A stretch of 64,000 bases of DNA from Sphingomonadales bacterium 28-55-16 (GTDB lineage Bacteria > Pseudomonadota > Alphaproteobacteria > Sphingomonadales > Sphingomonadaceae). Position 1 is the first letter of the stretch; each line of letters starts with the position of its first letter. The stretch is from positions 31,685 through 95,684 of the forward strand of contig NCGG01000015.1 of assembly GCA_002278855.1 (NCBI GenBank). Reading direction: 5' to 3'. The notes under the pieces are model-generated. The model was not told where the DNA came from. It was given only the letters and a program-made list of their open reading frames with translations, and made no database searches. Both the position numbers and the translations under genes were made by a program. Positions 18,556 through 30,592 of the stretch are shown piece by piece.

Positions 18556-19617
18556 ATGATTAACTCACGCAACTCTACCACTCCAGCTGTCGAAACTGCG
18601 ACGTCACGGCCCGCCGCGCTGATCATATGGCTGATATGTGTCGCTGCCCTTGTCTTTGCGATGGTGGTGGTGGGTGGCATTACGCGGCTGACCGAGTCCG
18701 GGTTATCCATCACCGAATGGAAGCCAATCGCGGGTGCATTGCCGCCACTGAACGAGGCAAGCTGGCTGTCTGAATTCGAGAAATATAAGCAAATACCTGA
18801 ATACACGCAGATTAACGGCCCCGCGGGTATGACGCTGGCGGAGTTTAAGTTCATCTATTTCTGGGAATGGGTCCACCGCCTGCTTGGTCGGGTCATAGGC
18901 CTGGCATTCGCATTGCCGCTCGCATGGTTTTGGCTGAAGAAGGCAATTCCAGCAGGTTATAAGCCCCGTTTGTTTGCGCTCCTTGCTTTGGGGGGACTTC
19001 AGGGCACGATTGGCTGGTGGATGGTGTCGTCTGGCCTTTCGGCGCGCACAGATGTCAGCCATTACCGTCTTGCCGTCCACTTGCTGACGGCGCTGACGAT
19101 CCTGGGTGGCTTGGTCTGGACTGCACTGGATTTGAAGGCGCTTGCAAAGGATCCATCGGCACGGCCAGCAACGATGACGGGCTATGCGGCGATTGTGCTG
19201 GCCATTCTGTTCATCCAGCTGCTGTTTGGGGCTTGGGTTGCTGGCTTGAACGCGGGCTATGTCGCCAATACTTGGCCATTGATGAATGACAAAATATATC
19301 CCGATGGCGTCGACACCACGCAAGGTGTGCTTTTTGCGCTGATCAACGATCCATATCTCACACATTTCGTGCATCGTTGGTGGGCCTGGGTTGCGGTGGT
19401 CGCGCTTGTATTGTTGTCACGTCGCGTGAAGAAAGCTGGTGCTCGCGGGGCTTCTGTTGCCATCCACAGCATGATTGGCATCCAGATCATCTTGGGCATT
19501 GCAACGGTCATGACGGGCGTCAACATCGTGCTCGCGGTATCGCACCAGGCGGTCGGTGCTTTGGTGGTCGCAGCGAGCGTATGGGGCGCGCATGTTCTGG
19601 GGCGCAAAGCGGCTTAA
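18556..19617 (+). CDS. ctaA: Heme A synthase (COX15/CtaA type 2)
   Basis: VGGITRLTESGLSITEW, FWEWVHRLLGR, GWWMVSSGL, HRWWA, HQAVG. Confidence 0.95.
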   Translation: MINSRNSTTPAVETATSRPAALIIWLICVAALVFAMVVVGGITRLTESGLSITEWKPIAGALPPLNEASWLSEFEKYKQIPEYTQINGPAGMTLAEFKFIYFWEWVHRLLGRVIGLAFALPLAWFWLKKAIPAGYKPRLFALLALGGLQGTIGWWMVSSGLSARTDVSHYRLAVHLLTALTILGGLVWTALDLKALAKDPSARPATMTGYAAIVLAILFIQLLFGAWVAGLNAGYVANTWPLMNDKIYPDGVDTTQGVLFALINDPYLTHFVHRWWAWVAVVALVLLSRRVKKAGARGASVAIHSMIGIQIILGIATVMTGVNIVLAVSHQAVGALVVAASVWGAHVLGRKAA

Positions 19618-19662
19618 ACACTAGAGGTATTATTATACCTGCCGTAAAACACCCGCTTTTGC

Positions 19663-19691
19663 TTGACTATCACGGCTTTCATCGTCATTGG
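19663..19691 (+). promoter_or_regulatory. Putative sigma70 promoter of rplM-rpsI
   Basis: TTGACT-N17-CATTGG, same architecture as the rpmG promoter. Confidence 0.55.
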
Positions 19692-19758
19692 CACCGCTTC
19701 GCGTGCAGTGTCGTCATGATTCTGCGCTTCTACAAAATTTCGAAAGGTGTGATTAGCG

Positions 19759-20210
19759 ATGAAAACGCTATCCAGAGTTACGAAATCGATCCGTCCACAG
19801 GACGTCGAGAAATCGTGGATCCTCATTGACGCAGAAGGTTTGGTTGTTGCCTGCGTGGCAAGACTAAGCCAAGCTATACCCCGCACGTTGATTGCGGCGA
19901 CCATGTTGTCGTCATCAACGCGGACAAGGTGAAGTTCACGGGCAAGAAATTGACCGACAAGGTCTATTATCGCCACACCGGTTACATCGGCGGTATCAAG
20001 GCAATCACAGCCGGCAAGATACTGGACGGCAAATTTCCTGAGCGTGTCCTTGAAAAGGCCGTAGAGCGCATGGTTCCACGCGGACCATTGGGCCGTGCAC
20101 AAATGCGTGCACTGCACCTCTACAACGGCACTGACCATCCACATGCGGGTCAACAGCCAACGACGCTCGACGTCGCTTCCATGAACCGCAAGAACAAGGT
20201 GGGTGCATAA
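19759..20210 (+). pseudogene. rplM: 50S ribosomal protein L13, frameshifted by an apparent ~28-nt deletion at 19849-19850 (real lesion or assembly error)
   Basis: Frame 1: [30 protein letters not shown], then out of frame to TGA at 19930-19932. A second frame resumes at 19851 with [31 protein letters not shown]...VGA*. The conserved GRLA helix is missing. Confidence 0.85.
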
Positions 20211-20701
20211 TGTCTGAAACTGCAACTTCGCTCGCTGATCTCGAAACGCTGGGCGCCGACGTTCAGGCACCTGCGCAGATCGCTGCTGTCATCCGTGAAC
20301 AGGAAATCGACGCACAAGGTCGTGCTTATGCAACCGGTCGCCGCAAGGATGCGGTTGCCCGCGTATGGCTGAAGCCTGGCACTGGCAAGATCGTTGTCAA
20401 CGGCCGTGACCAGGAAGTGTATTTCGCACGTCCTTCGCTTCGCCTCGTCATCAACCAGCCGTTCGGTGTAACCGAGCGCACGGGTCAGTATGACGTTATC
20501 GCAACCGTTAAGGGCGGTGGCCTTTCGGGCCAAGCCGGCGCGGTAAAGCATGGCATCGCACAGGCATTGTCGAAATTCGAACCCTTGCTGCGCAGCGCAG
20601 TAAAGGCCGAAGGCTTCCTGACACGCGACAGCCGCGTTGTTGAGCGTAAGAAATACGGCAAGGCCAAGGCGCGTAAGAGCTTCCAGTTCTCGAAGCGTTA
20701 A
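20210..20701 (+). CDS. rpsI: 30S ribosomal protein S9
   Basis: [39 protein letters not shown]; TAATG overlap with rplM. Confidence 0.98.
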
Positions 20702-21696: not shown

Positions 21697-23016
21697 TTAA
21701 GGCAAAGCTTGGGGTCTTTGGCCGACGATCTTTTGGCGATAGGAGATGATGAGCAATGCTGCGTTCACTAAAGCCGCACCAAGCATGGCAAATGCCGCGC
21801 CGACTTCACCATAAATCGGCATCAGCCAAACCAGCAGCAAAGCGACCGTGATTGCGCCGACGAAGCTGCACAGCATCACACGTCCAGCTTTGCCTGCGGT
21901 CAGCAACGCGGGCTCTAACCCAAGCGTAGCAAATTGTACGGCGGTGGCCGCGCCCAATATCATCACCAGCGGGTAAGCCGCGACGAAATCAGCACCGAAT
22001 ATCCATATAATGACCGGCTGACCGGCCAATCCTACGATCGCCAATACCAGCACGGCTGCAACGCCGGAAACTTTCATCATCCGATTGAGCAAATTGCGGG
22101 CATCTTGTGGGTCGCCCGTATGCGCAACCCGCGCATATTCGGTGAAAATGGCCATCGATATCGCGTCGCCAACGCGCGCAAAGACTTGCCCCAATTGATA
22201 GCCCAGCCGGAAGAACCCGGCCGCCGTAGCGCCGACATAAAAGCCGACCACCACGGCCACCATTTGCTGGCTCGTCAGTTTAAAGCTGGACCCGATGTTT
22301 GACCATAAGGCGAATTTGGCGATGCCCGGAAAACTGTGCTGGAAAGCCATGGGTGTTGGCAATGTTTTCAATCGCAAGGGCAGTTGCAGCTTTCGCAGCA
22401 CATTGGCCCAAATCCAAATCGTTGGGACCATCTCAGAAATCAACCAGACCGCCAGAAAGCCACAGACCGTGGGTTCCGTTAAAATCAGCAGACCCGTGCC
22501 ACCCAGACGGATGATCGGGACCAGCATGTCCGGAATGGCGGCGTCGCCAAACCGATCGCTTATCCGCAATAGTCCCGTCGGCGTTGAACGCGAAGACAAT
22601 ACCAGAAGAGCGGTAAAGACGATGACTGCGATGGCTTCCCTATCTTCCCAGCCTTGATTGTTGGCAAGCGCCCACGCACCGACAGCCGCAACCAGGAATG
22701 CAATTATGGCGCCAGCCAGGTCAAGGATCAGGCAGAACCACGTCAATTCCGCCAGCTTTGCATGCGCACGGTCGTGAACAAGCGTGGTCCCGTACCGGAT
22801 CAGTATTTGCCATGTCTGAAATGATGTAAAGCCGGATATGGTCTGGGCGAAACTAAAGATCAGCATGAACTTGCCGAAATTTGCCGCCCCCAGCGTTTGC
22901 GTGGAGACAGCAAGATAGACAAGGCTTAGGACCGCAGAAACCGTTTTGGGTAAAAAAAGCCACGCGCCAGATTGCAATATGCGGCGCCCACTCCCCTGTT
23001 GCTGCTCATCCGTCAA
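21697..23016 (-). CDS. Wzx/MATE-like polysaccharide flippase
   Basis: About 12 hydrophobic segments, LGAANFGKFMLIFSF, GATAAGFFRLG, YGEVGAAFA; probable TTG start at 23016 (ORF extends to 23073). Confidence 0.85.
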   Translation of the reverse strand: MTDEQQQGSGRRILQSGAWLFLPKTVSAVLSLVYLAVSTQTLGAANFGKFMLIFSFAQTISGFTSFQTWQILIRYGTTLVHDRAHAKLAELTWFCLILDLAGAIIAFLVAAVGAWALANNQGWEDREAIAVIVFTALLVLSSRSTPTGLLRISDRFGDAAIPDMLVPIIRLGGTGLLILTEPTVCGFLAVWLISEMVPTIWIWANVLRKLQLPLRLKTLPTPMAFQHSFPGIAKFALWSNIGSSFKLTSQQMVAVVVGFYVGATAAGFFRLGYQLGQVFARVGDAISMAIFTEYARVAHTGDPQDARNLLNRMMKVSGVAAVLVLAIVGLAGQPVIIWIFGADFVAAYPLVMILGAATAVQFATLGLEPALLTAGKAGRVMLCSFVGAITVALLLVWLMPIYGEVGAAFAMLGAALVNAALLIISYRQKIVGQRPQALP

Positions 23017-23144
23017 GTTAACATCCCCAATTTGGTGCGGGCCTAATGCACTTCGGCTCCTAATCAAAGACATGTCATTATATGCTAGCTAAAAAATTGA
23101 AGCTGGTTAAGCGGAACGGACATCGACGCTAGGCATTTGTTCTC

Positions 23145-24191
23145 ATGGCACACCCAATCTGGTTAAGTGTTTTATTGCCGGTGTATAATGTCGAAGGCTA
23201 TCTTGCCGCATGCCTCGACTCCCTTTTGGACCAGATTGGGAAAGATCATGGTGTGCAGATCGTCATCGTAGATGATGCGTCAACTGATGCATCCCATGCA
23301 ATTGCGCAAAGCTTCTGCAGCCAACACCCGCACATAATCAAAGTGCTGCGCCACGGTGTGAACCAAGGCGTAAGTGCGGCCCGAAATCGCTTGATTGACG
23401 AAGCCGAGGGTGAACATATCTGGTTCGTCGATCCTGACGATTACATTTTGAAGGGTGCGCTAGGGCAGCTTCGCACTGTCCTCGACACCTATAATCCCGA
23501 CCTCATTTTATGTGATTACCGCAAATCCCGCTTTGCCATCACGCGGTCTTTTTTTGGCCCACGCAAGCAGCTTTCATTAGACACTGGGCACTTGGTCTCC
23601 GGCGTGTTTAAAAGTCGCAAAATGTATTGTTGGCTGAAAATCAGTCGACGGTCCTTGTGGCGCGATGGTCCACGCTTTCCGGAGGGCAAGATTTTCGAAG
23701 ACATCGCCACGACGCCTTGGCTGCTCTTGAAGGCACGAAATCATTATCATGTACCTTCGCCTTGGATTTTCTACCGGCAGCGCGCGGGCAGTATCATGGA
23801 CAGCGTCAAGCGCAAGTCGGGTATTTTTGACGCCCGAAAGCATCAGGATTTGGCCGAAGCGCTCAGCGGATTTAAAGAGGCAATGCACGAGCGGTTGGGC
23901 GGCATCCCCCATTCTGCGGCCTATTATGTGTCAGACTTTTGCGCAAAAGAATTTGTCAAAACTGCTCTGCGCTTTGTGCGTTATGGGCATGGAACCGACG
24001 GTGGGCGCACAGTTGGACTTGATCATTATCTGGAGCAGTTCGAGAAATGTGCGCCAATGCATTTTGACAAACTGGCCGTCCACTATCTGAAAAGGCTGAG
24101 GTTTCTGCGATATTTGCTTTTGAAATATGCTTTGTACTTGGCAAATCGGTCGCACACATCCGATTTAGGCGATACGGGCTTGGCACCATGA
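23145..24191 (+). CDS. Glycosyltransferase family 2
   Basis: SVLLPVYNVEGYLAACLDS, VDDASTD, NQGVSAARN, FVDPDD, FEDIA, YRQRAGSI. Confidence 0.92.
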   Translation: MAHPIWLSVLLPVYNVEGYLAACLDSLLDQIGKDHGVQIVIVDDASTDASHAIAQSFCSQHPHIIKVLRHGVNQGVSAARNRLIDEAEGEHIWFVDPDDYILKGALGQLRTVLDTYNPDLILCDYRKSRFAITRSFFGPRKQLSLDTGHLVSGVFKSRKMYCWLKISRRSLWRDGPRFPEGKIFEDIATTPWLLLKARNHYHVPSPWIFYRQRAGSIMDSVKRKSGIFDARKHQDLAEALSGFKEAMHERLGGIPHSAAYYVSDFCAKEFVKTALRFVRYGHGTDGGRTVGLDHYLEQFEKCAPMHFDKLAVHYLKRLRFLRYLLLKYALYLANRSHTSDLGDTGLAP

Positions 24192-25426
24192 TTCAGCGAC
24201 AAAATATGCACGGTGAAGCACCCATAACATTTCTGTTCAATCACGACGCAGGGCATCAGGCTGCGCATCTGGCCGGGATTGCAGGCGCACTCGCGTTACA
24301 ACAAAAAGGACGCAAGGTCGTGGTGGCTTTCGGCAGCGATGCGACCCGAACAGAGGTGGAAAAATTGCTGTCGCAGGGTCAAATTGCGGCTCTCGACTGG
24401 TATCCATTGGCCCTTCCGAAAACACTCGAATGGCTCACGCGCGGCTTGAACAAGCTGGTGCCGATCCACCGGTTGCTGCGGCTATATTATCATAATGCGC
24501 AATTGCGTGAATCCGCTGCCATCGTTTCGACCGAGCGCACATGTCTAACCTTAAAGCGCCATTGGTCGAAGCACCGACCAAAGGATCATGCCCCGGCATT
24601 TGTCTATGTCCCGCATGGCTCGGGGGACCGAAACGTGGCGGTTCACCGCGCGCTTAAGGCGTTCGACTTATGCTTGGTCAGCGGGCAAAAGGTACAGGAC
24701 CAACTTGTCGAAGCCGGCGTAGCAACGCCAGATAAATGCCGCGTTATCGGCTATGCAAAATTCGATATCTTGCGTGGGCGCGTCCCCGAGAGATTTTTTG
24801 AAAATGGCAAACCAACTTTTTTATACAACCCCCATTTCGACCCCCATATGTCGAGTTGGTTCGACCATGGTGCCGCTATTCTGGAGTATTTTTATCAAAA
24901 TCCGGACCGATACAATCTGATCTGCGCGCCGCATGTCATGCTCTTCTACAAGAAAGTGCATATTTCGCCCGAATATCGCGTCACCCGCAAACGGCCAGAT
25001 ATTGACCCGAAATATTATAATGCGCGAAATATCCGGATTGATGTGGACAGCGCACGCCTGTTTGACATGAGCTATACATGGTCTGCAGATGCCTATATCG
25101 GCGATGTTTCAAGCCAGGTGTATGAGTTTCTGTATCGCCCACGCGCGTGTTTCTTCATTGATACACATAGCAAAACTGCACCGGATGCACCGCCAGAATA
25201 TGATTTCTGGAACAATGGTCCTGTGGTCAGAAATGCGCAGGAGCTGTTACCTCTGCTCACGGATTATGCGGCGATTGCGGTTCAATATCGCGACGCCCAA
25301 GAACGCAGAATGGCCTATACTGCCGATCAGAGCGACCCGCGCCCCGCATCCGAGCGTGGGGCCGAGGCATTATATACATATGTCGAAAGCTTGAAATCCG
25401 CGGTCCGCGACGGAGCGACGGCATAA
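24188..25426 (+). CDS. TagF/TagB-like CDP-polyol phosphotransferase-family protein (GT-B fold)
   Basis: YVPHGSGDR, IGYAKFD, FLYNPHF, APH, AYIGDVSSQVYEFL resemble CDP-glycerol glycerophosphotransferase motifs; ATGA-coupled to GT2. Confidence 0.6.
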   Translation: MIQRQNMHGEAPITFLFNHDAGHQAAHLAGIAGALALQQKGRKVVVAFGSDATRTEVEKLLSQGQIAALDWYPLALPKTLEWLTRGLNKLVPIHRLLRLYYHNAQLRESAAIVSTERTCLTLKRHWSKHRPKDHAPAFVYVPHGSGDRNVAVHRALKAFDLCLVSGQKVQDQLVEAGVATPDKCRVIGYAKFDILRGRVPERFFENGKPTFLYNPHFDPHMSSWFDHGAAILEYFYQNPDRYNLICAPHVMLFYKKVHISPEYRVTRKRPDIDPKYYNARNIRIDVDSARLFDMSYTWSADAYIGDVSSQVYEFLYRPRACFFIDTHSKTAPDAPPEYDFWNNGPVVRNAQELLPLLTDYAAIAVQYRDAQERRMAYTADQSDPRPASERGAEALYTYVESLKSAVRDGATA

Positions 25427-25429
25427 GCG

Positions 25430-26122
25430 TTACGTCTGTGCAGCATCCTGCATGCTGCGGAAATTCTTGATGCCCCAATGGGCCTTTACCGCTGCGGCTG
25501 CAAAGCTTTTGGACGGGTTTACCGCATAAGCTTGATCGGCGAAGTTCAGCGTAGGACTGTCGCTGATGTCGTCGGAGTAGAAGACGATATGTGCTGCCTT
25601 GCGGTCAATGCTGTTTTGCGCAAGCCAGCCTTCGACGCGGCGCAGTTTTTCGTCTGCGTAGCAATTATCCCCCAATATTTTGCGTGTCAGCCGGCCGTCG
25701 GATGCCCGGATATGGCGCGTGGCAATGACGGCTTGAAAGCCCAAAAGGTCACCGATTGTTTGGGCGTAAAATTCTGGCGCAGCGGTTGCCAGGACCAAAA
25801 TTGCGCCACGTTCGCGGTCCGTGCGCAGTTGCGCGACAGCGCCGGGCTGCAATCCCTTTGTGACGACGATATCTGCAAATTCTGCAACAATTTTGGTGCA
25901 TGTGTCGGTGCCCAATTGGCGCCCGATAAACATCTGAATACCAAATTGCTTCAATGGTTTGCGGCCATAAAGCCCAATACTATAGCCGATTAATGCCAAT
26001 ATCCAGATCGGCAGCCCCGCCAACCGAATGGGTGACGCGTAACGGGCGTAAAATAAGAGAAAATAGGTAAATGTAGGGCGACGGGTGATGGTGCTATCGA
26101 GATCATATATTGCAATATTCAT
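25430..26122 (-). CDS. HAD-IB family phosphatase with membrane segment
   Basis: YDLDSTIT motif I, ATAA motif II, NCYADEK, YSDDISDSP; hydrophobic cap region. Confidence 0.88.
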   Translation of the reverse strand: MNIAIYDLDSTITRRPTFTYFLLFYARYASPIRLAGLPIWILALIGYSIGLYGRKPLKQFGIQMFIGRQLGTDTCTKIVAEFADIVVTKGLQPGAVAQLRTDRERGAILVLATAAPEFYAQTIGDLLGFQAVIATRHIRASDGRLTRKILGDNCYADEKLRRVEGWLAQNSIDRKAAHIVFYSDDISDSPTLNFADQAYAVNPSKSFAAAAVKAHWGIKNFRSMQDAAQT

Positions 26123-26206
26123 ATTTGACCGCCAAGCCCCGCCTCAAGGGACTGCCAGGCGCGCTGACGTACCCTCCTGATTTTTGTCGCGTTTAGGAGA
26201 AGCGAG

Positions 26207-27001
26207 TTGCAAGCGCAATGGACCTGCATTGTTTTGGCCGGACAACGGCCCGGGCCTGATATTTTGGCGCGGCATTTTGGGCTAAGTAAAAAGGCGCTCA
26301 TTCCCGTACGTGGTGTGCCGATGATCAGCCATGTGGTCGCTACGCTGCATAAATCATCGCACATCGCCAAAATCATCATATTGTCGCAGGATATCGAGGC
26401 GTTGCGTCCTGCCGTTGATGCGGCGGGCGGGGGCATTTTGGTGGAAAGCCAAAGCAGCATTTCGTTAAGCATAAAGGCGCAGGTCGAGACTTTGGGCTTT
26501 GCCTCGCCGATTTTGGTGACAACGGCGGATCATCCATTGTTAAACGTTGAAATGATCGACGCATTCTTGAACCAAGCGGGAGGCGATCTTGCGATTGCGA
26601 TGGTCGAACGCAAAACGATGTTGGCGCAGTTTCCGGACGCAAAACGGACATGGTTACGGTTTTCTGATGGTGCGTGGTCCGGCGCCAATCTTTTTGCCTT
26701 AATCGGCCACAAGTCGGTCTTCGCGCTCGAATTATGGGCCGATGCAGAGCAGGATCGCAAAAAAGCATGGCGTCTGTTTCTGCATTTTGGTCCTTGCCTT
26801 GCCTTACGCGCGCTCACCCGGACGATTGGGCTGCGTTACGCATTGGGACGCGCGGGCAAACGGATTGGTTTGGAGGCAAGGCTTGTTGCCATGTCAGATC
26901 CAGTCGCCGCGATCGATGTCGACAAGCTCAGCGATCATGTGCTTGCGGAAAAAATACTCACGGAACGTGAAGGTCTAAGCGGACATAACTCCACCGCCTG
27001 A
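26207..27001 (+). CDS. MobA-like NTP transferase (nucleotidyltransferase)
   Basis: IVLAGQRPG, KALIPVRGVPMISHV, LVTTADHPLL, AIDVDKLSD; TTG start with AGGAG RBS. Confidence 0.85.
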   Translation: MQAQWTCIVLAGQRPGPDILARHFGLSKKALIPVRGVPMISHVVATLHKSSHIAKIIILSQDIEALRPAVDAAGGGILVESQSSISLSIKAQVETLGFASPILVTTADHPLLNVEMIDAFLNQAGGDLAIAMVERKTMLAQFPDAKRTWLRFSDGAWSGANLFALIGHKSVFALELWADAEQDRKKAWRLFLHFGPCLALRALTRTIGLRYALGRAGKRIGLEARLVAMSDPVAAIDVDKLSDHVLAEKILTEREGLSGHNSTA

Positions 27002-28492
27002 TCAACGCCCCATTTTCCGCTGACGGCGGCGCTGCACCGACGAACCAATGCCCATCGCTTCGCGATATTTGGCGACGGTGCGGCGGGCAATGTCAAAGCC
27101 CTTTGCCGTGAGCATTTCGACCAAAGTATCATCGGAGAGGATCTTGTCGCCTTCGGCCTCAATCAGCGTCTTGATATGGCTCTTTACCGCCTCTGCCGAT
27201 GCGCCTTCGCCATCGGCAGATTGAACACCCGATGAAAAGAAATATTTCAGGTCAAAAAGCCCGCGCCCGCAGTGCAGATATTTGTTGCTGGTCACCCGGC
27301 TTACTGTGGATTCATGCATCTCAATCGCATCTGCCACTTGGCGTAGCGTTAATGGTCTTAAATGCGCTACGCCCCGCCGGAAGAAACCTTCCTGTTGCTT
27401 CACGACTTCAGTGGCAACTTTCACAATGGTGCGCTGACGTTGGTCCATGGCCTTGATAAGCCAATTGGCGTCGGCCATGCAATCGCTGAGCCAAGCCTTG
27501 GTGGCCTTGTCCTGCCCAAGCTCGGCGACATAATTTCGGTTGATGAGCAACCGGGGCAAATTGGCGCTATTCAGCTCAATCACCCACCCATCGCCTCGCG
27601 GCGTAACATAAATGTCCGGTGTCACCGCCATGCTGTCTTCGCTTTCAAAGCGGCAGCCAGGTTTCGGGTCATAGCTGCGAAGTTCAATCAACATGTCGTG
27701 CAAATCTTCGTCGTCGACGCGGCACATGCGCTTCAGCTGTTCAAAGGCGCCTTTGGCAACCAAGTCGAGATTGTCGATCAACCGCGCCATACAAGGGTCA
27801 TAACGATCCGCGTCTTTTGCCTGAAGAGAAAGGCATTCAGACAGGTTGCGTGCGCCAACGCCCGTCGGGTCAAAGCGGTGGAGCGCTGCCAGCGCGTCCT
27901 CCATCTCCGCCATGGGCGCCCCAAGCCGTTGCGCCATCGCCAACAGATCTTCGCCCAAATAGCCCGTCGGTTCGATCTGCTCGATCATTTGCTGCACAAG
28001 GAAAAGCTGCCGGCCTGCAAGGCTTGACCCTGCCTGCGCAATCAAATGCTCCCGCAGGCTGAGGTCGCGTGCAGCAAAGCTATCGAAATCGGGCCCGTCT
28101 CCGTCAAAGTCGCCAGACATTGCGCTGGCCGAAAGGCCAAGCATTCCATCCGCACCGCTGACGCTATCCGATGGCGTGTCATGGTGAAAGGTTTCGGCGC
28201 TGAAATCGACATCAAGCGCTTCGGAGGCAGCATGGAGGTCACTGCCCATAACGTCGTCGCTTGAACGTTCATTGGTTTCCGGCGCAGTGTTTTGCGACAG
28301 GTCGTCGAACGACGTTTCAGGGGCGGAGTCGCCGCCGCCAACGTCAAGGACTGGGTTACGCTCGACTTCTTCTGCAATGAAAGCTTCAATTTCGAGAGAC
28401 GACAATGCCAGCAACTTAATCGCCTGTTGCAGCTGCGGCGTCATGACCAGCGACTGGCTTTGACGAAGATCGAGGCGCGGAGCTAATGTCAT
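27002..28492 (-). CDS. rpoN: RNA polymerase sigma-54 factor
   Basis: LVMTPQLQQAIKLL, HESTVSRVT, ARRTVAKYRE (RpoN box). Confidence 0.98.
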   Translation of the reverse strand: MTLAPRLDLRQSQSLVMTPQLQQAIKLLALSSLEIEAFIAEEVERNPVLDVGGGDSAPETSFDDLSQNTAPETNERSSDDVMGSDLHAASEALDVDFSAETFHHDTPSDSVSGADGMLGLSASAMSGDFDGDGPDFDSFAARDLSLREHLIAQAGSSLAGRQLFLVQQMIEQIEPTGYLGEDLLAMAQRLGAPMAEMEDALAALHRFDPTGVGARNLSECLSLQAKDADRYDPCMARLIDNLDLVAKGAFEQLKRMCRVDDEDLHDMLIELRSYDPKPGCRFESEDSMAVTPDIYVTPRGDGWVIELNSANLPRLLINRNYVAELGQDKATKAWLSDCMADANWLIKAMDQRQRTIVKVATEVVKQQEGFFRRGVAHLRPLTLRQVADAIEMHESTVSRVTSNKYLHCGRGLFDLKYFFSSGVQSADGEGASAEAVKSHIKTLIEAEGDKILSDDTLVEMLTAKGFDIARRTVAKYREAMGIGSSVQRRRQRKMGR

Positions 28493-28522
28493 GACGTTAG
28501 ATTTTCGTCATTGCCCCCCACG

Positions 28523-29302
28523 TCACATTGCAAAACTCTCGCCGAGGTACAGGCGGCGGACATTAGGGTCGGCAACCAACGCCTCGGGCGACCCCGCAAA
28601 CAGGACTTGGCCGCCGTAAATAATGCAGGCGCGGTCAACAATATCGAGCGTCTCGCGGACATTATGATCGGTGATGAGCACGCCAATGCCGCGCGTTTTA
28701 AGCTCCTTCACCAGATCGCGGATGTCGGCAATCGAAATCGGGTCAATACCGGCAAAGGGTTCGTCGAGCAGCATAATCGACGGATTTGCGGCCAATGCAC
28801 GTGCAATCTCGCAACGTCGCCGTTCACCGCCCGACAAGGCCATCGCAGGTGCACTCCGCAAACGGGTAAGGCCGAATTCATCAAGCAGCTTTTCCAACCG
28901 CTCGCCGCGCGAGTCGGCATCGGGCTCCGACATTTCAAGAACCGCGCTGATGTTTTGTTCAACCGTCATCCCACGAAAAATCGAGGTTTCCTGAGGCAAA
29001 TAGCCAAGCCCCAATATTGCACGGCGGTACATTGGCAGATTTGTAATGTCTGCGCCGTCTAGGGTAATCCGCCCACTATCCGGTTTCACCAGACCCATGA
29101 TGGAATAAAAGCACGTGGTCTTGCCAGCGCCATTGGGCCCAAGCAAGCCAACAACCTCACCCTTTGCGACAGAAAGCGAAACATCAGTTAAAACCGCACG
29201 TTTATCATAGCTTTTGGCAATGGAGACAACACCAAGTCCCGACTGCAAGCCCGCATCGGTGGTCGCTTCCGCGGCAGGGAGGGGGGCAGTCATGCTATCC
29301 AT
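28523..29302 (-). CDS. lptB: Lpt ABC transporter ATP-binding protein
   Basis: GPNGAGKTT, GYLPQETSIFR, LSGGERRR, LLDEPFAGIDP, LITDHNVRETL; lies upstream of rpoN. Confidence 0.97.
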   Translation of the reverse strand: MDSMTAPLPAAEATTDAGLQSGLGVVSIAKSYDKRAVLTDVSLSVAKGEVVGLLGPNGAGKTTCFYSIMGLVKPDSGRITLDGADITNLPMYRRAILGLGYLPQETSIFRGMTVEQNISAVLEMSEPDADSRGERLEKLLDEFGLTRLRSAPAMALSGGERRRCEIARALAANPSIMLLDEPFAGIDPISIADIRDLVKELKTRGIGVLITDHNVRETLDIVDRACIIYGGQVLFAGSPEALVADPNVRRLYLGESFAM

Positions 29303-29373
29303 ATTTAATATTCGTCCGCAATCACGCTGTTGTTTTCTATCTAATAGCTAGTGAATACTGAACCAATTTGCAA

Positions 29374-29390
29374 TTGGCATGGTTCATGCT
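29374..29390 (+). promoter_or_regulatory. Sigma54 -24/-12-type site, opposite in orientation to lptB-rpoN
   Basis: TTGGCATGGTTCATGCT (GG-N10-GC) in the lptA-lptB spacer. Confidence 0.45.
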
Positions 29391-29421
29391 GCGCAGTTTT
29401 GTATACAACCGCAGTTGAAAC

Positions 29422-29970
29422 TTAATTTTTGCGCTGCGGCACGCTAAAGCTACCGGTAATTCTGCCGCCTGAATTTGTCGTACCAGGCGCACCACCGCCG
29501 TTTATTGTCGACCGGCCCGAGTTAAGGTCAATCACTAGTCTCGCGCCAGCGAGGCGGTTGCTGCCTTGGACTAGGTTCACATTGCCGATCAGCGTGATTA
29601 AACTTGAGTCGAGGTCATAAATGGCTGAGCTGCTCGTTGCACGCAGGTCATCTTTGGTGACCGTGACACCGCCGGTTGCGTCGAGCCGGTTCACATCAAC
29701 CCCGCCATTGCTTGAATATGCGGCCGTGACCCGATTGGCTTTTAGCGTAAGCCCCGCTTGTGTCGCCGTTACGCCGCCGGACAATACAACGCGGTCCGCG
29801 CGGTCTTGCAACTCCATGGACGCCGCGGAAAAATCCACAGGCGCGTTGCTGTTGTGGTTACGGATGCTTTGGGCAGTTGATGCCGAAGACAATATTGCCA
29901 CGCCGACCATCGCCGCGCAGGCACCAAAAGAGAGAGAACGGATAGTCATGAGCGGCTTACTTAATCGCAT
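29422..29970 (-). CDS. lptA: LptA/OstA periplasmic bridge protein
   Basis: Signal peptide, HNSNAPVDFSA, LSGGVTATQ, GNVNLVQG, GARLVIDL; start 29970 or 29949. Confidence 0.88.
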   Translation of the reverse strand: MRLSKPLMTIRSLSFGACAAMVGVAILSSASTAQSIRNHNSNAPVDFSAASMELQDRADRVVLSGGVTATQAGLTLKANRVTAAYSSNGGVDVNRLDATGGVTVTKDDLRATSSSAIYDLDSSLITLIGNVNLVQGSNRLAGARLVIDLNSGRSTINGGGAPGTTNSGGRITGSFSVPQRKN

Positions 29971-30592
29971 TCTGGTCGATACGCAAACGAACCCCGCCGT
30001 CCAAACGCACAATGCGGGTGTCAAGATCGGCACGCAGACGTCCAGCATGGAACGTTCCGACCTTTGTTCGGCCGCTGACGGGACCAAAGCTTTGCATCGA
30101 ACGGTCTTTCAACGACAGCACGACGTTGCTGGCGACCATGTCATATCCAGCCGAGTCGACAGCCAAAGGTCCCTTTACGCGCATGGTTTCTTTATTGAGG
30201 TCGTAGACCCCACGCTGCGCGATGATCGAGGCTGGACCATCGCTTAGCGTGATCCTGCCAGACAAAGATGTCATGTCCAGCACTGGTTCAGCTGAAGTTT
30301 TCTGCACGGCGCTGCCAGCACGTAATGAAAATGGGCGTCCCTTGCTGTCATCGCCGCGGTATAATGCCTCGACCACACGCAGCCGTTCGCGGGAAAGGTC
30401 AACTTCATCTTTGTTCAGTACGAAGCTGAGTTCTTGCTTGCCGGTAAAAGGGCTGAACGCAAGCAATGCGACCAGCAAACCTATGATGCTTGGCAGGACA
30501 ACGCGCAACGTCCGGATCAAACGATCATGCTGCCCGCCGGGCAGCGCCCAGCGTTGTCTTTGTGTGCGTTCGAGATCGGCTTGTGCGGACAT
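29957..30592 (-). CDS. lptC: LptC
   Basis: Single TM followed by YRGDDSKGRPFSLRA and a beta-jellyroll-like C-terminus; position before lptA-lptB. Confidence 0.82.
   Translation of the reverse strand: MSAQADLERTQRQRWALPGGQHDRLIRTLRVVLPSIIGLLVALLAFSPFTGKQELSFVLNKDEVDLSRERLRVVEALYRGDDSKGRPFSLRAGSAVQKTSAEPVLDMTSLSGRITLSDGPASIIAQRGVYDLNKETMRVKGPLAVDSAGYDMVASNVVLSLKDRSMQSFGPVSGRTKVGTFHAGRLRADLDTRIVRLDGGVRLRIDQNAIK

Follow-up and report, generated by a model that had tools for sequence, protein, structure and literature searches.

A likely accessory sphingolipid-modification module, related to the Caulobacter sphingolipid locus, in a sphingomonad without lipopolysaccharide

Five genes at positions 21697–27001 of a 64,000-nucleotide stretch of contig NCGG01000015.1 from Sphingomonadales bacterium 28-55-16 (the whole stretch is hereafter the window) encode a Wzx-like flippase, a GT2 glycosyltransferase, a TagF-like protein, a HAD-IB phosphatase and a MobA-like nucleotidyltransferase (NTP transferase), and we consider it likely that they correspond, in this host, to the accessory genes of the sphingolipid locus known from Alphaproteobacteria. 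Judged by homology and genomic context, the flippase, TagF-like protein and NTP transferase are counterparts of Caulobacter CC_1166, CC_1167 and CC_1153, and the five products would most likely act on an outer-membrane sphingolipid, decorating and flipping it, and not in the synthesis of a teichoic acid or an ordinary polysaccharide. An earlier sequence-only reading had proposed here an anionic glyco(sphingo)lipid or teichoic-acid-like pathway joined to the Lpt export operon, noting that sphingomonads typically have glycosphingolipids in place of lipopolysaccharide (LPS) yet keep Lpt genes. All the genes that it named were recovered where it had placed them, both in the list of open reading frames (ORFs) and by profile searches, and its general picture of an anionic sphingolipid pathway in an LPS-less sphingomonad stands, the tie of the module to sphingolipids being borne out by synteny and co-occurrence. 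Its identification of the NTP transferase with CpgD and the operon join to Lpt do not stand, and nothing points to a teichoic-acid-like polymer.

The point of comparison is the 17-gene sphingolipid region of Caulobacter (Olea-Ozuna et al., 2024; PMC11324152); in S. wittichii and Z. mobilis the orthologous genes are dispersed. In the Caulobacter region, which also encodes LptF2 and LptG2, CC_1152 is CpgD, CC_1153 is a nucleotidyltransferase of MobA/CobY/CofC-like type that is needed for CPG2, CC_1166 (IPR002797) is a putative flippase, CC_1167 has a glycerophosphotransferase domain (IPR007554) and CC_1168 is LptC2 (PMC11324152); roles for CC_1166 and CC_1167 are putative, and CC_1153 is known from its mutant phenotype alone, the loss of CPG2. 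Three domain families are common to the window and C. crescentus CC_1152–CC_1168 (CCNA_01210–01226), namely IPR002797/PF01943, IPR007554/PF04464 and IPR025877/PF12804, and when the Brevundimonas genes from the CC_1153 and CC_1167 positions are compared with the host genome, the window proteins are their best matches. The window differs from the Caulobacter locus in that its three shared genes lie away from the core cluster and are joined by the HAD-IB and GT2 genes, and its genome has neither CpgA (CC_1159), CpgD (CC_1152) nor LPS. The genes are not mentioned in the Sphingomonadales glycosphingolipid genomics papers PMC13318209 and PMC13028669 or in Zik et al. (2022).

The identity of the NTP transferase (26207–27001, plus strand) is central to how the module is read. 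It matches NTP_transf_3 (PF12804, E 5.8e-13) and, weakly, CofC (PF01983, E 3e-4) and CTP_transf_3, in agreement with the MobA/CofC-like description of CC_1153 (PMC11324152 S1 Text). Brevundimonas has, in order, cerS, an NTP transferase gene, a PF00483-type gene on the opposite strand (with a GxGxRLxPLT motif and at the CpgD position) and a TagF-like gene. The window enzyme is 39% identical (E 4e-45) to the product of the Brevundimonas gene directly after cerS, for which it is the only strong match in the host genome, whereas the gene at the CpgD (CC_1152) position did not match it at E <= 10 and has as its closest full-length counterpart in the host genome a 26%-identical protein (E 1e-6) encoded on another contig; nor was a PF00483 match found in the window enzyme. 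Because it matches the post-cerS gene and not the CpgD-type gene, the likeness to CpgD that the sequence-only reading had suggested is wrong, and sequence comparison places the enzyme in the CC_1153/CCNA_01211 family, the second nucleotidyltransferase of the sphingolipid locus.

Structural comparison likewise did not bring out CpgD. The AlphaFold2 (AF2) model of the NTP transferase, with a predicted local distance difference test score (pLDDT) of 95, has as its nearest structure the uncharacterised Thermus protein TTHA0179 (2dpw; E 2e-16 by sequence, template-modelling (TM) score 0.78), followed by CMP-NeuAc and CMP-Kdo synthetases, IspD, TarI and GlmU, and IMPCT 4JD0, the top structural match of CpgD, is not among its top 50 Foldseek matches. 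Since cytidylyltransferases come next after 2dpw, such an activity is plausible, and by its fold the enzyme probably uses cytidine triphosphate (CTP). CpgD itself (CCNA_01210) is, as had been stated, a real Caulobacter cytidylyltransferase that makes cytidine diphosphate (CDP)-glycerate from CTP and phosphoglycerate (PMC12275187). It shares with the window enzyme the nucleotidyltransferase fold and a gene in a sphingolipid locus, and it and CC_1153, the relative of the window enzyme, are both needed for CPG2 in Caulobacter; but CpgD is PF00483/IMPCT-like, whereas the window enzyme is of the MobA-like type, carries a helical extension at its C terminus and is nearest to 2dpw, and the two have no detectable pairwise similarity. 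In our judgement it is therefore improbable that the earlier scheme holds to the letter, with a CpgD/TagD-like enzyme making CDP-glycerate or a CDP-polyol, the TagF-like protein adding this to a GT2-built glycan and the whole set fused to the Lpt operon, even though CpgD is a true CTP:phosphoglycerate cytidylyltransferase (PMC12275187) and the structural neighbours after 2dpw are mostly cytidylyltransferases, among them the CDP-ribitol synthase TarI. A distant group of NTP transferase paralogues (25–31% identity) was also considered as CpgD and rejected, as its genes adjoin PrpD, ATP-grasp and Mla-like genes. This group, absent from the host genome, occurs at L030:4890–10610 (genome G036, of the same bacterial order as the host) and in L032, L034 and L037, together with a STAS-MlaE permease, a PrpD/MmgE-family protein and an ATP-grasp ligase.

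Genomic context ties the NTP transferase family firmly to sphingolipid genes. A scan of named genomes with a four-sequence alignment of the family returned 80 loci, and all 80 lie in sphingolipid clusters: cerS is directly upstream in 47/80, cpgB and cpgC are both within 9 kb in 58/80 and, within the same distance, cpgA is found in 48/80, wzx in 20/80 and a TagF-like gene in 17/80. The homologue directly follows cerS in five genomes (G213, G177, G168, G092 and G033), which is the CC_1154–CC_1153 arrangement, and in G168 the flippase gene is 1 kb from the cerS–NTP transferase pair. The Azospirillaceae-like genome G213 has lptF-lptG-...-cerS-NTP transferase and, a few kb on, cpgA-cpgB-cpgC-like-...-wzx-TagF-like-aasR-cerR, and both the flippase and the TagF-like protein of the window form reciprocal best hits with their homologues in this cluster. 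Nine Sphingomonas loci (L053, L059, L066, L070, L077, L084, L086, L099 and L106) read TagF-like-cpgA-wzx-cpgB-cpgC-NTP transferase in one direction, the flippase homologues thus adjoining cpg genes. This Sphingomonas-type cluster shares the three accessory families and the order Sphingomonadales with the window; it differs in being co-directional with cpgA, cpgB and cpgC, whereas the window genes alternate in orientation, have no cpgA among them and include those for the HAD and GT2 proteins. Sphingolipid clusters of Azospirillaceae, Acetobacteraceae, Sphingomonas and Caulobacterales contain homologues of the flippase, TagF-like protein and NTP transferase, at least five families being represented.

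The second diagnostic protein, of 412 residues (24188–25426, plus strand), would be a divergent TagB/TagF-type (GT-B) phosphotransferase, and sequence comparison makes it the counterpart of CC_1167/CCNA_01225, being 33% identical (E 5e-46) to the Brevundimonas protein encoded at the CC_1167 position. Its only Pfam match is to Glyphos_transf (PF04464; E 0.0066, 15.9 bits against a gathering cut-off of 22.1), which 21/36 of its relatives match at E <= 0.01 (best 7.1e-7), with no other family matched. The Foldseek comparison that had been proposed for this protein gave TagF as the top match in the PDB to its AF2 model (pLDDT 89.8), with 3l7m/3l7l in first place (3l7m_B, E 4.5e-11, TM 0.61–0.62), in line with the suggested TagF-likeness; when PDB sequences were searched with a profile of the TagF-like family, nothing meaningful came up and TagF was not found, so that the link comes from fold comparison only. 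Across TagF-like proteins that are 25–61% identical, H143-G144-x-G146, H216, P248-H249 and G305-D306-x-S308-S309-Q310-x-x-E313 are invariant, the residue at the x of G305-D306-x being V in the window protein (G305-D306-V-S308-S309-Q310), and H143-G144 and D306-x-S308-S309 may be the equivalents of the W-H-G and D-Y-S-S motifs of TagB/TagF. With the wall teichoic acid glycerophosphotransferases TagF/TagB (PF04464; PDB 3L7I–3L7M) the protein would share the GT-B fold (TagF being its top structural match, TM 0.61) and the only Pfam family matched across its own family, and its conserved HG and D-x-S-S-type motifs may correspond to theirs. It differs from them in its low identity (12–14%), in a Pfam score under the gathering threshold and in its host, a Gram-negative bacterium with no teichoic acid genes shown, where the likely acceptor would be a sphingolipid.

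TagF-like proteins vary among the genomes. Two loci of the same genus as the window (L016 and L017) differ in their flippase and have a TagF-like variant of 40% identity. In Gluconacetobacter azotocaptans (L074:9815–13395), two tandem TagF-like genes and a wzx-like flippase gene directly follow the NTP transferase gene of the sphingolipid cluster, which hints that the transferase was duplicated and has diverged in Acetobacteraceae.

Co-occurrence of the TagF-like gene with ceramide synthase (cerS) had been put forward as a check, and it was found. In a class-wide sample of 201 alphaproteobacterial genomes of >= 95% completeness, TagF-like genes were present in 8 and cerS in 32; cerS occurs in seven of the eight TagF-like genomes, the eighth being a weak partial match (Fisher p about 1e-5, with related genomes not independent). 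Among 40 relatives, 15 have a TagF-like gene and 36 a member of the NTP transferase family, and an NTP transferase orthologue is present in 14/15 of the TagF-like relatives and in 5/5 of the distant TagF-like genomes tested, while many genomes have the NTP transferase alone. The TagF-like gene thus rarely occurs without the NTP transferase gene and the converse is untrue, which fits a transferase dependent on the NTP transferase product: such one-way dependence is expected of a donor-synthase/transferase pair and is no proof of one.

The same figures bear on a different reading, which we hold to be rather unlikely, whereby these are all sphingolipid genes that form no single pathway. The CC_1153-type enzyme would then activate a lipid-bound phosphate in the CpgB/CpgC route, 2-phospho-CPG having been proposed as the CC_1153 substrate by Olea-Ozuna et al. 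(PMC11324152), the TagF-like enzyme would draw on a common-pool donor such as CDP-glycerol to yield a ceramide phosphoglycerol-type lipid, and the HAD protein would serve unrelated envelope lipid housekeeping. Consistent with this, the NTP transferase has a much wider distribution than the TagF-like protein and is usually accompanied by cerS or cpgB/cpgC; a ceramide-phospho-glycerol in a Z. mobilis mutant has been cited, and two CC_1167 homologues exist in that species (PMC11324152 S1 Text); and a second HAD paralogue of the host adjoins an Mla-like transporter. Such independence sits poorly, however, with the near absence of TagF-like genes without an NTP transferase gene, and with the persistence of four of the window genes as neighbours through several rearrangements in the genus and again in Pelagerythrobacter.

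The Wzx-like flippase (21697–23073, minus strand), of the MOP family (PF01943, Polysacc_synt, E 1.5e-13), has about 10–12 hydrophobic segments and is encoded by a single-copy gene in the host genome; sequence and context mark it as the counterpart of CC_1166/CCNA_01224. Loci for O-antigen, capsule and teichoic acid commonly contain members of the Wzx-like, GT2, TagF-like and NTP transferase families, and gene content varies among strains of the genus as it does in glycan loci, both of which would suit a Wzx-dependent locus for an undecaprenyl-linked polysaccharide or teichoic-acid-like polymer with no link to sphingolipids. We nonetheless regard such a locus as highly improbable, given that homologues of three of the window genes recur in sphingolipid clusters of so many families and that TagF-like genes are almost confined to genomes with cerS. 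Moreover, between rpsI and rpoN there is no Wzy polymerase, initiating phosphoglycosyltransferase, chain-length regulator or exporter, the neighbours of the locus being rpsI, an alpha/beta hydrolase gene, rpoN and lptBAC; with neither a priming transferase nor a polymerase in the vicinity of this locus, a polysaccharide locus of the ordinary Wzx/Wzy kind is unlikely.

The two remaining genes are the ones that distinguish the window from the Caulobacter arrangement. The soluble GT2 glycosyltransferase (23145–24191, plus strand; PF00535, E 1.3e-29) is encoded immediately before the 412-residue protein, its stop overlapping the ATG of the latter (ccATGAtt, 24188–24191), so that the overlap behind the translational coupling proposed in the sequence-only reading is real, and this overlap speaks for the literal form of its scheme. 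Within the genus, however, the GT2 gene is present only in the window, L015 and L021 and is absent from L016–L020, that is, from 5/8 loci of other genomes in the genus, and therefore provides no core step: it is a strain-variable accessory gene.

The HAD-IB phosphatase (25430–26122, minus strand; TIGR01490, 105.9 bits against a cut-off of 98.3; PF12710, E 2.5e-26) has a nucleophile motif of the DxDxT type (DLDST, in YDLDSTIT at residues 6–13). It had been called a membrane protein; this description depends on one moderately hydrophobic stretch (residues 32–52) and is uncertain. Homologues within the order adjoin the NTP transferase gene (L031, L036 and L114) or the TagF-like gene (L013), and in Pelagerythrobacter (L098) the HAD, TagF-like, wzx and NTP transferase genes stand together; five genomes from outside the order yielded no homologue. 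The host encodes a second HAD-IB paralogue on another contig (C30:46062–50359), which shares 40% identity with the window copy and is divergently adjacent to an Mla-like ABC transporter (STAS-MlaE, MlaF, MlaD and a lipoprotein). In Sphingomonas melonis, Pacificimonas and Altericroceibacterium, the HAD proteins encoded beside sphingolipid genes resemble this second paralogue more closely than the window copy. Given the second paralogue and the greater closeness to it of some HAD proteins of other genera, the role of the HAD protein is the least certain of the module.

The rest of the host genome gives the background to this reading. The assembly is 2.35 Mb and 100% complete, with Sphingorhabdus giving the nearest named protein matches, and no LpxC was found in it; the host is a bacterium without LPS that has retained its Lpt genes, in keeping with what the sequence-only reading said of sphingomonads. 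Outside the window it carries spt, cerS, cpgB, cpgC, lptF and lptG. The core sphingolipid cluster (C40:5386–14655) comprises cerR-acpR-spt, a gene for a 217-residue membrane protein, cpgC and cpgB (both on the minus strand), a gene for a 158-residue secreted protein, lptF, lptG and cerS, and aasR is on contig 18. We recognised cpgC by its similarity to cluster genes in place of PF09139 (Tam41), since searches with that profile gave zero matches even in control genomes and are uninformative. Within this cluster, lptF and lptG stand among the sphingolipid genes, as they do in S. wittichii.

Two genes of the Caulobacter pathway are missing. No CpgA homologue was matched in the host genome by tblastn with the Sphingomonas, Pacificimonas and Brevundimonas proteins, the PF01066 profile finding three short ORFs there and nothing more, and a search with the Brevundimonas CpgD-position gene found no CpgD orthologue. 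As CpgA and CpgD are both absent, the product cannot simply be CPG2, and the module would represent, on the gene content, a CpgA/CpgD-free variant of the known sphingolipid locus to which the HAD-IB and strain-variable GT2 genes have been added.

The five genes form four short units of alternating orientation, with divergent spacers of 71 and 84 bp and convergent ends 3 and 0 bp apart. The zero spacer to rpoN-lptB-lptA-lptC that had suggested a physical join to the Lpt operon exists as such, the stop TGA of the NTP transferase gene (26999–27001) abutting the rpoN stop (27002–27004), but the two genes are convergent and the lack of a spacer is therefore no sign of co-transcription. Moreover, while the wzx, TagF-like, HAD and NTP transferase block is kept within the genus beside rpsI and the alpha/beta hydrolase gene, rpoN borders it in the closer relatives only and the contact is lost in more distant members (G003, G018 and G007). 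The contact with rpoN-lptBAC is thus convergent and lineage-specific, not an operon fusion, and this again tells against the literal scheme. A scan of the region for promoters and terminators gave the same counts as shuffled sequence and speaks neither for nor against particular transcription units. One terminator-like hairpin with a T-run was seen at 26957–26971 (minus strand), 31–45 nt past the rpoN stop and inside the 3′ end of the NTP transferase ORF; such hairpins are no commoner in the region than in shuffled sequence.

A link with Lpt export has support from Caulobacter. Sphingolipid transport there depends on LptF2, LptG2 and LptC2 along with LptB (preprint 10.64898/2026.04.12.717747), which bears out the connection between Lpt and sphingolipid export made in the sequence-only reading, and the lptB-containing Lpt exporter is the likely downstream export route here. 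A paralogue of lptC was not found by tblastn in the host genome, where a single LptC-like gene was seen.

Taken as a pathway, the module could work as follows. At the cytoplasmic face of the inner membrane, the CC_1153-type enzyme would make a nucleotide-activated phospho-compound, from which the TagB/TagF-type enzyme would transfer a phospho-unit to a ceramide-based lipid at its head group, the acceptor being either ceramide phosphoglycerate formed by CpgB/CpgC or a glycosphingolipid. The HAD-IB phosphatase might then remove a terminal phosphate or else supply a dephosphorylated substrate, and in strains having GT2 this enzyme would add a sugar. The finished lipid would be flipped by the Wzx-like protein and carried to the outer membrane by LptB2FG-C-A-D/E. 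This step-by-step chemistry is inferred, as are the CDP-glycerate or CDP-polyol donor and the trimming by the HAD protein put forward in the sequence-only reading.

Several points weigh against assigning the five genes to such a sphingolipid pathway. CC_1167 is classed by Olea-Ozuna et al. as "probably unrelated" to the synthesis of phosphosphingolipids (PMC11324152), and in Caulobacter the pathway of CC_1153 also depends on CpgA and CpgD, neither of which is present here. The NTP transferase occurs in most sphingolipid clusters without a TagF-like gene, so that it must have a role beyond TagF-like supply and need not feed the TagF-like enzyme. As regards that enzyme, the window protein's own match to PF04464, being under the gathering score, is weak, the Foldseek scores of its model against TagF and against UDP-GlcNAc 2-epimerases, which have the same GT-B fold, are nearly tied, and the equivalence of its putative catalytic motifs to those of TagF is tentative. 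Finally, with a HAD paralogue elsewhere in the genome, HAD orthology across genera is ambiguous.

On the far side of the module lie rpoN and the lpt genes, all on the minus strand. The rpoN gene (sigma-54; 27002–28492), a neighbour outside the module, encodes the Sigma54 AID, CBD and DBD domains (NF004596, E 1.4e-195) and is followed by lptB for the Lpt exporter ATPase (28523–29302; TIGR04406, E 3.6e-108, 360 bits against a cut-off of 240), lptA (29422–30087; PF03968, E 1.5e-16) and lptC (29957–30592; PF06835, E 6e-5 and under the NCBIfam cut-off, with one N-terminal transmembrane segment). The longest lptA ORF shares 131 bases with lptC; a later ATG near 29949, opening a signal-peptide-like sequence (MTIRSLSF...), removes the overlap and is probably the true start. 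On the other side of the module, a 218-residue ORF with no Pfam match (19614–20270, minus strand), just upstream of rpsI on the opposite strand, is conserved in relatives by tblastn; its conservation probably reflects a gene on the plus strand, rplM being expected before rpsI.

Beyond correcting a tempting mis-annotation of the NTP transferase gene as CpgD, the analysis makes plain that adjacency to lpt genes alone is no evidence of a functional link. Three families that travel together, joined by a phosphatase, in a genome without the CPG2 enzymes CpgA and CpgD offer a cleaner genetic background in which to look at their roles, and suggest a pairing in which a TagF-type transferase, with a sphingolipid as its acceptor, uses up the product of the nucleotidyltransferase. 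Only tentatively do we go further and propose, as one possibility, that the NTP transferase, TagF-like protein and HAD-IB phosphatase constitute a separate, undescribed route in LPS-free sphingomonads lacking CpgA and CpgD, leading to a phospho-decorated and in some strains glycosylated anionic sphingolipid that is flipped by a dedicated Wzx-type flippase, exported by Lpt and stands in functionally for LPS. If true, such a route would give CC_1167, CC_1166 and CC_1153, orphan genes of Caulobacter, their first biochemical roles, and it would bear on the making and export of outer-leaflet lipids in bacteria that lack LPS.

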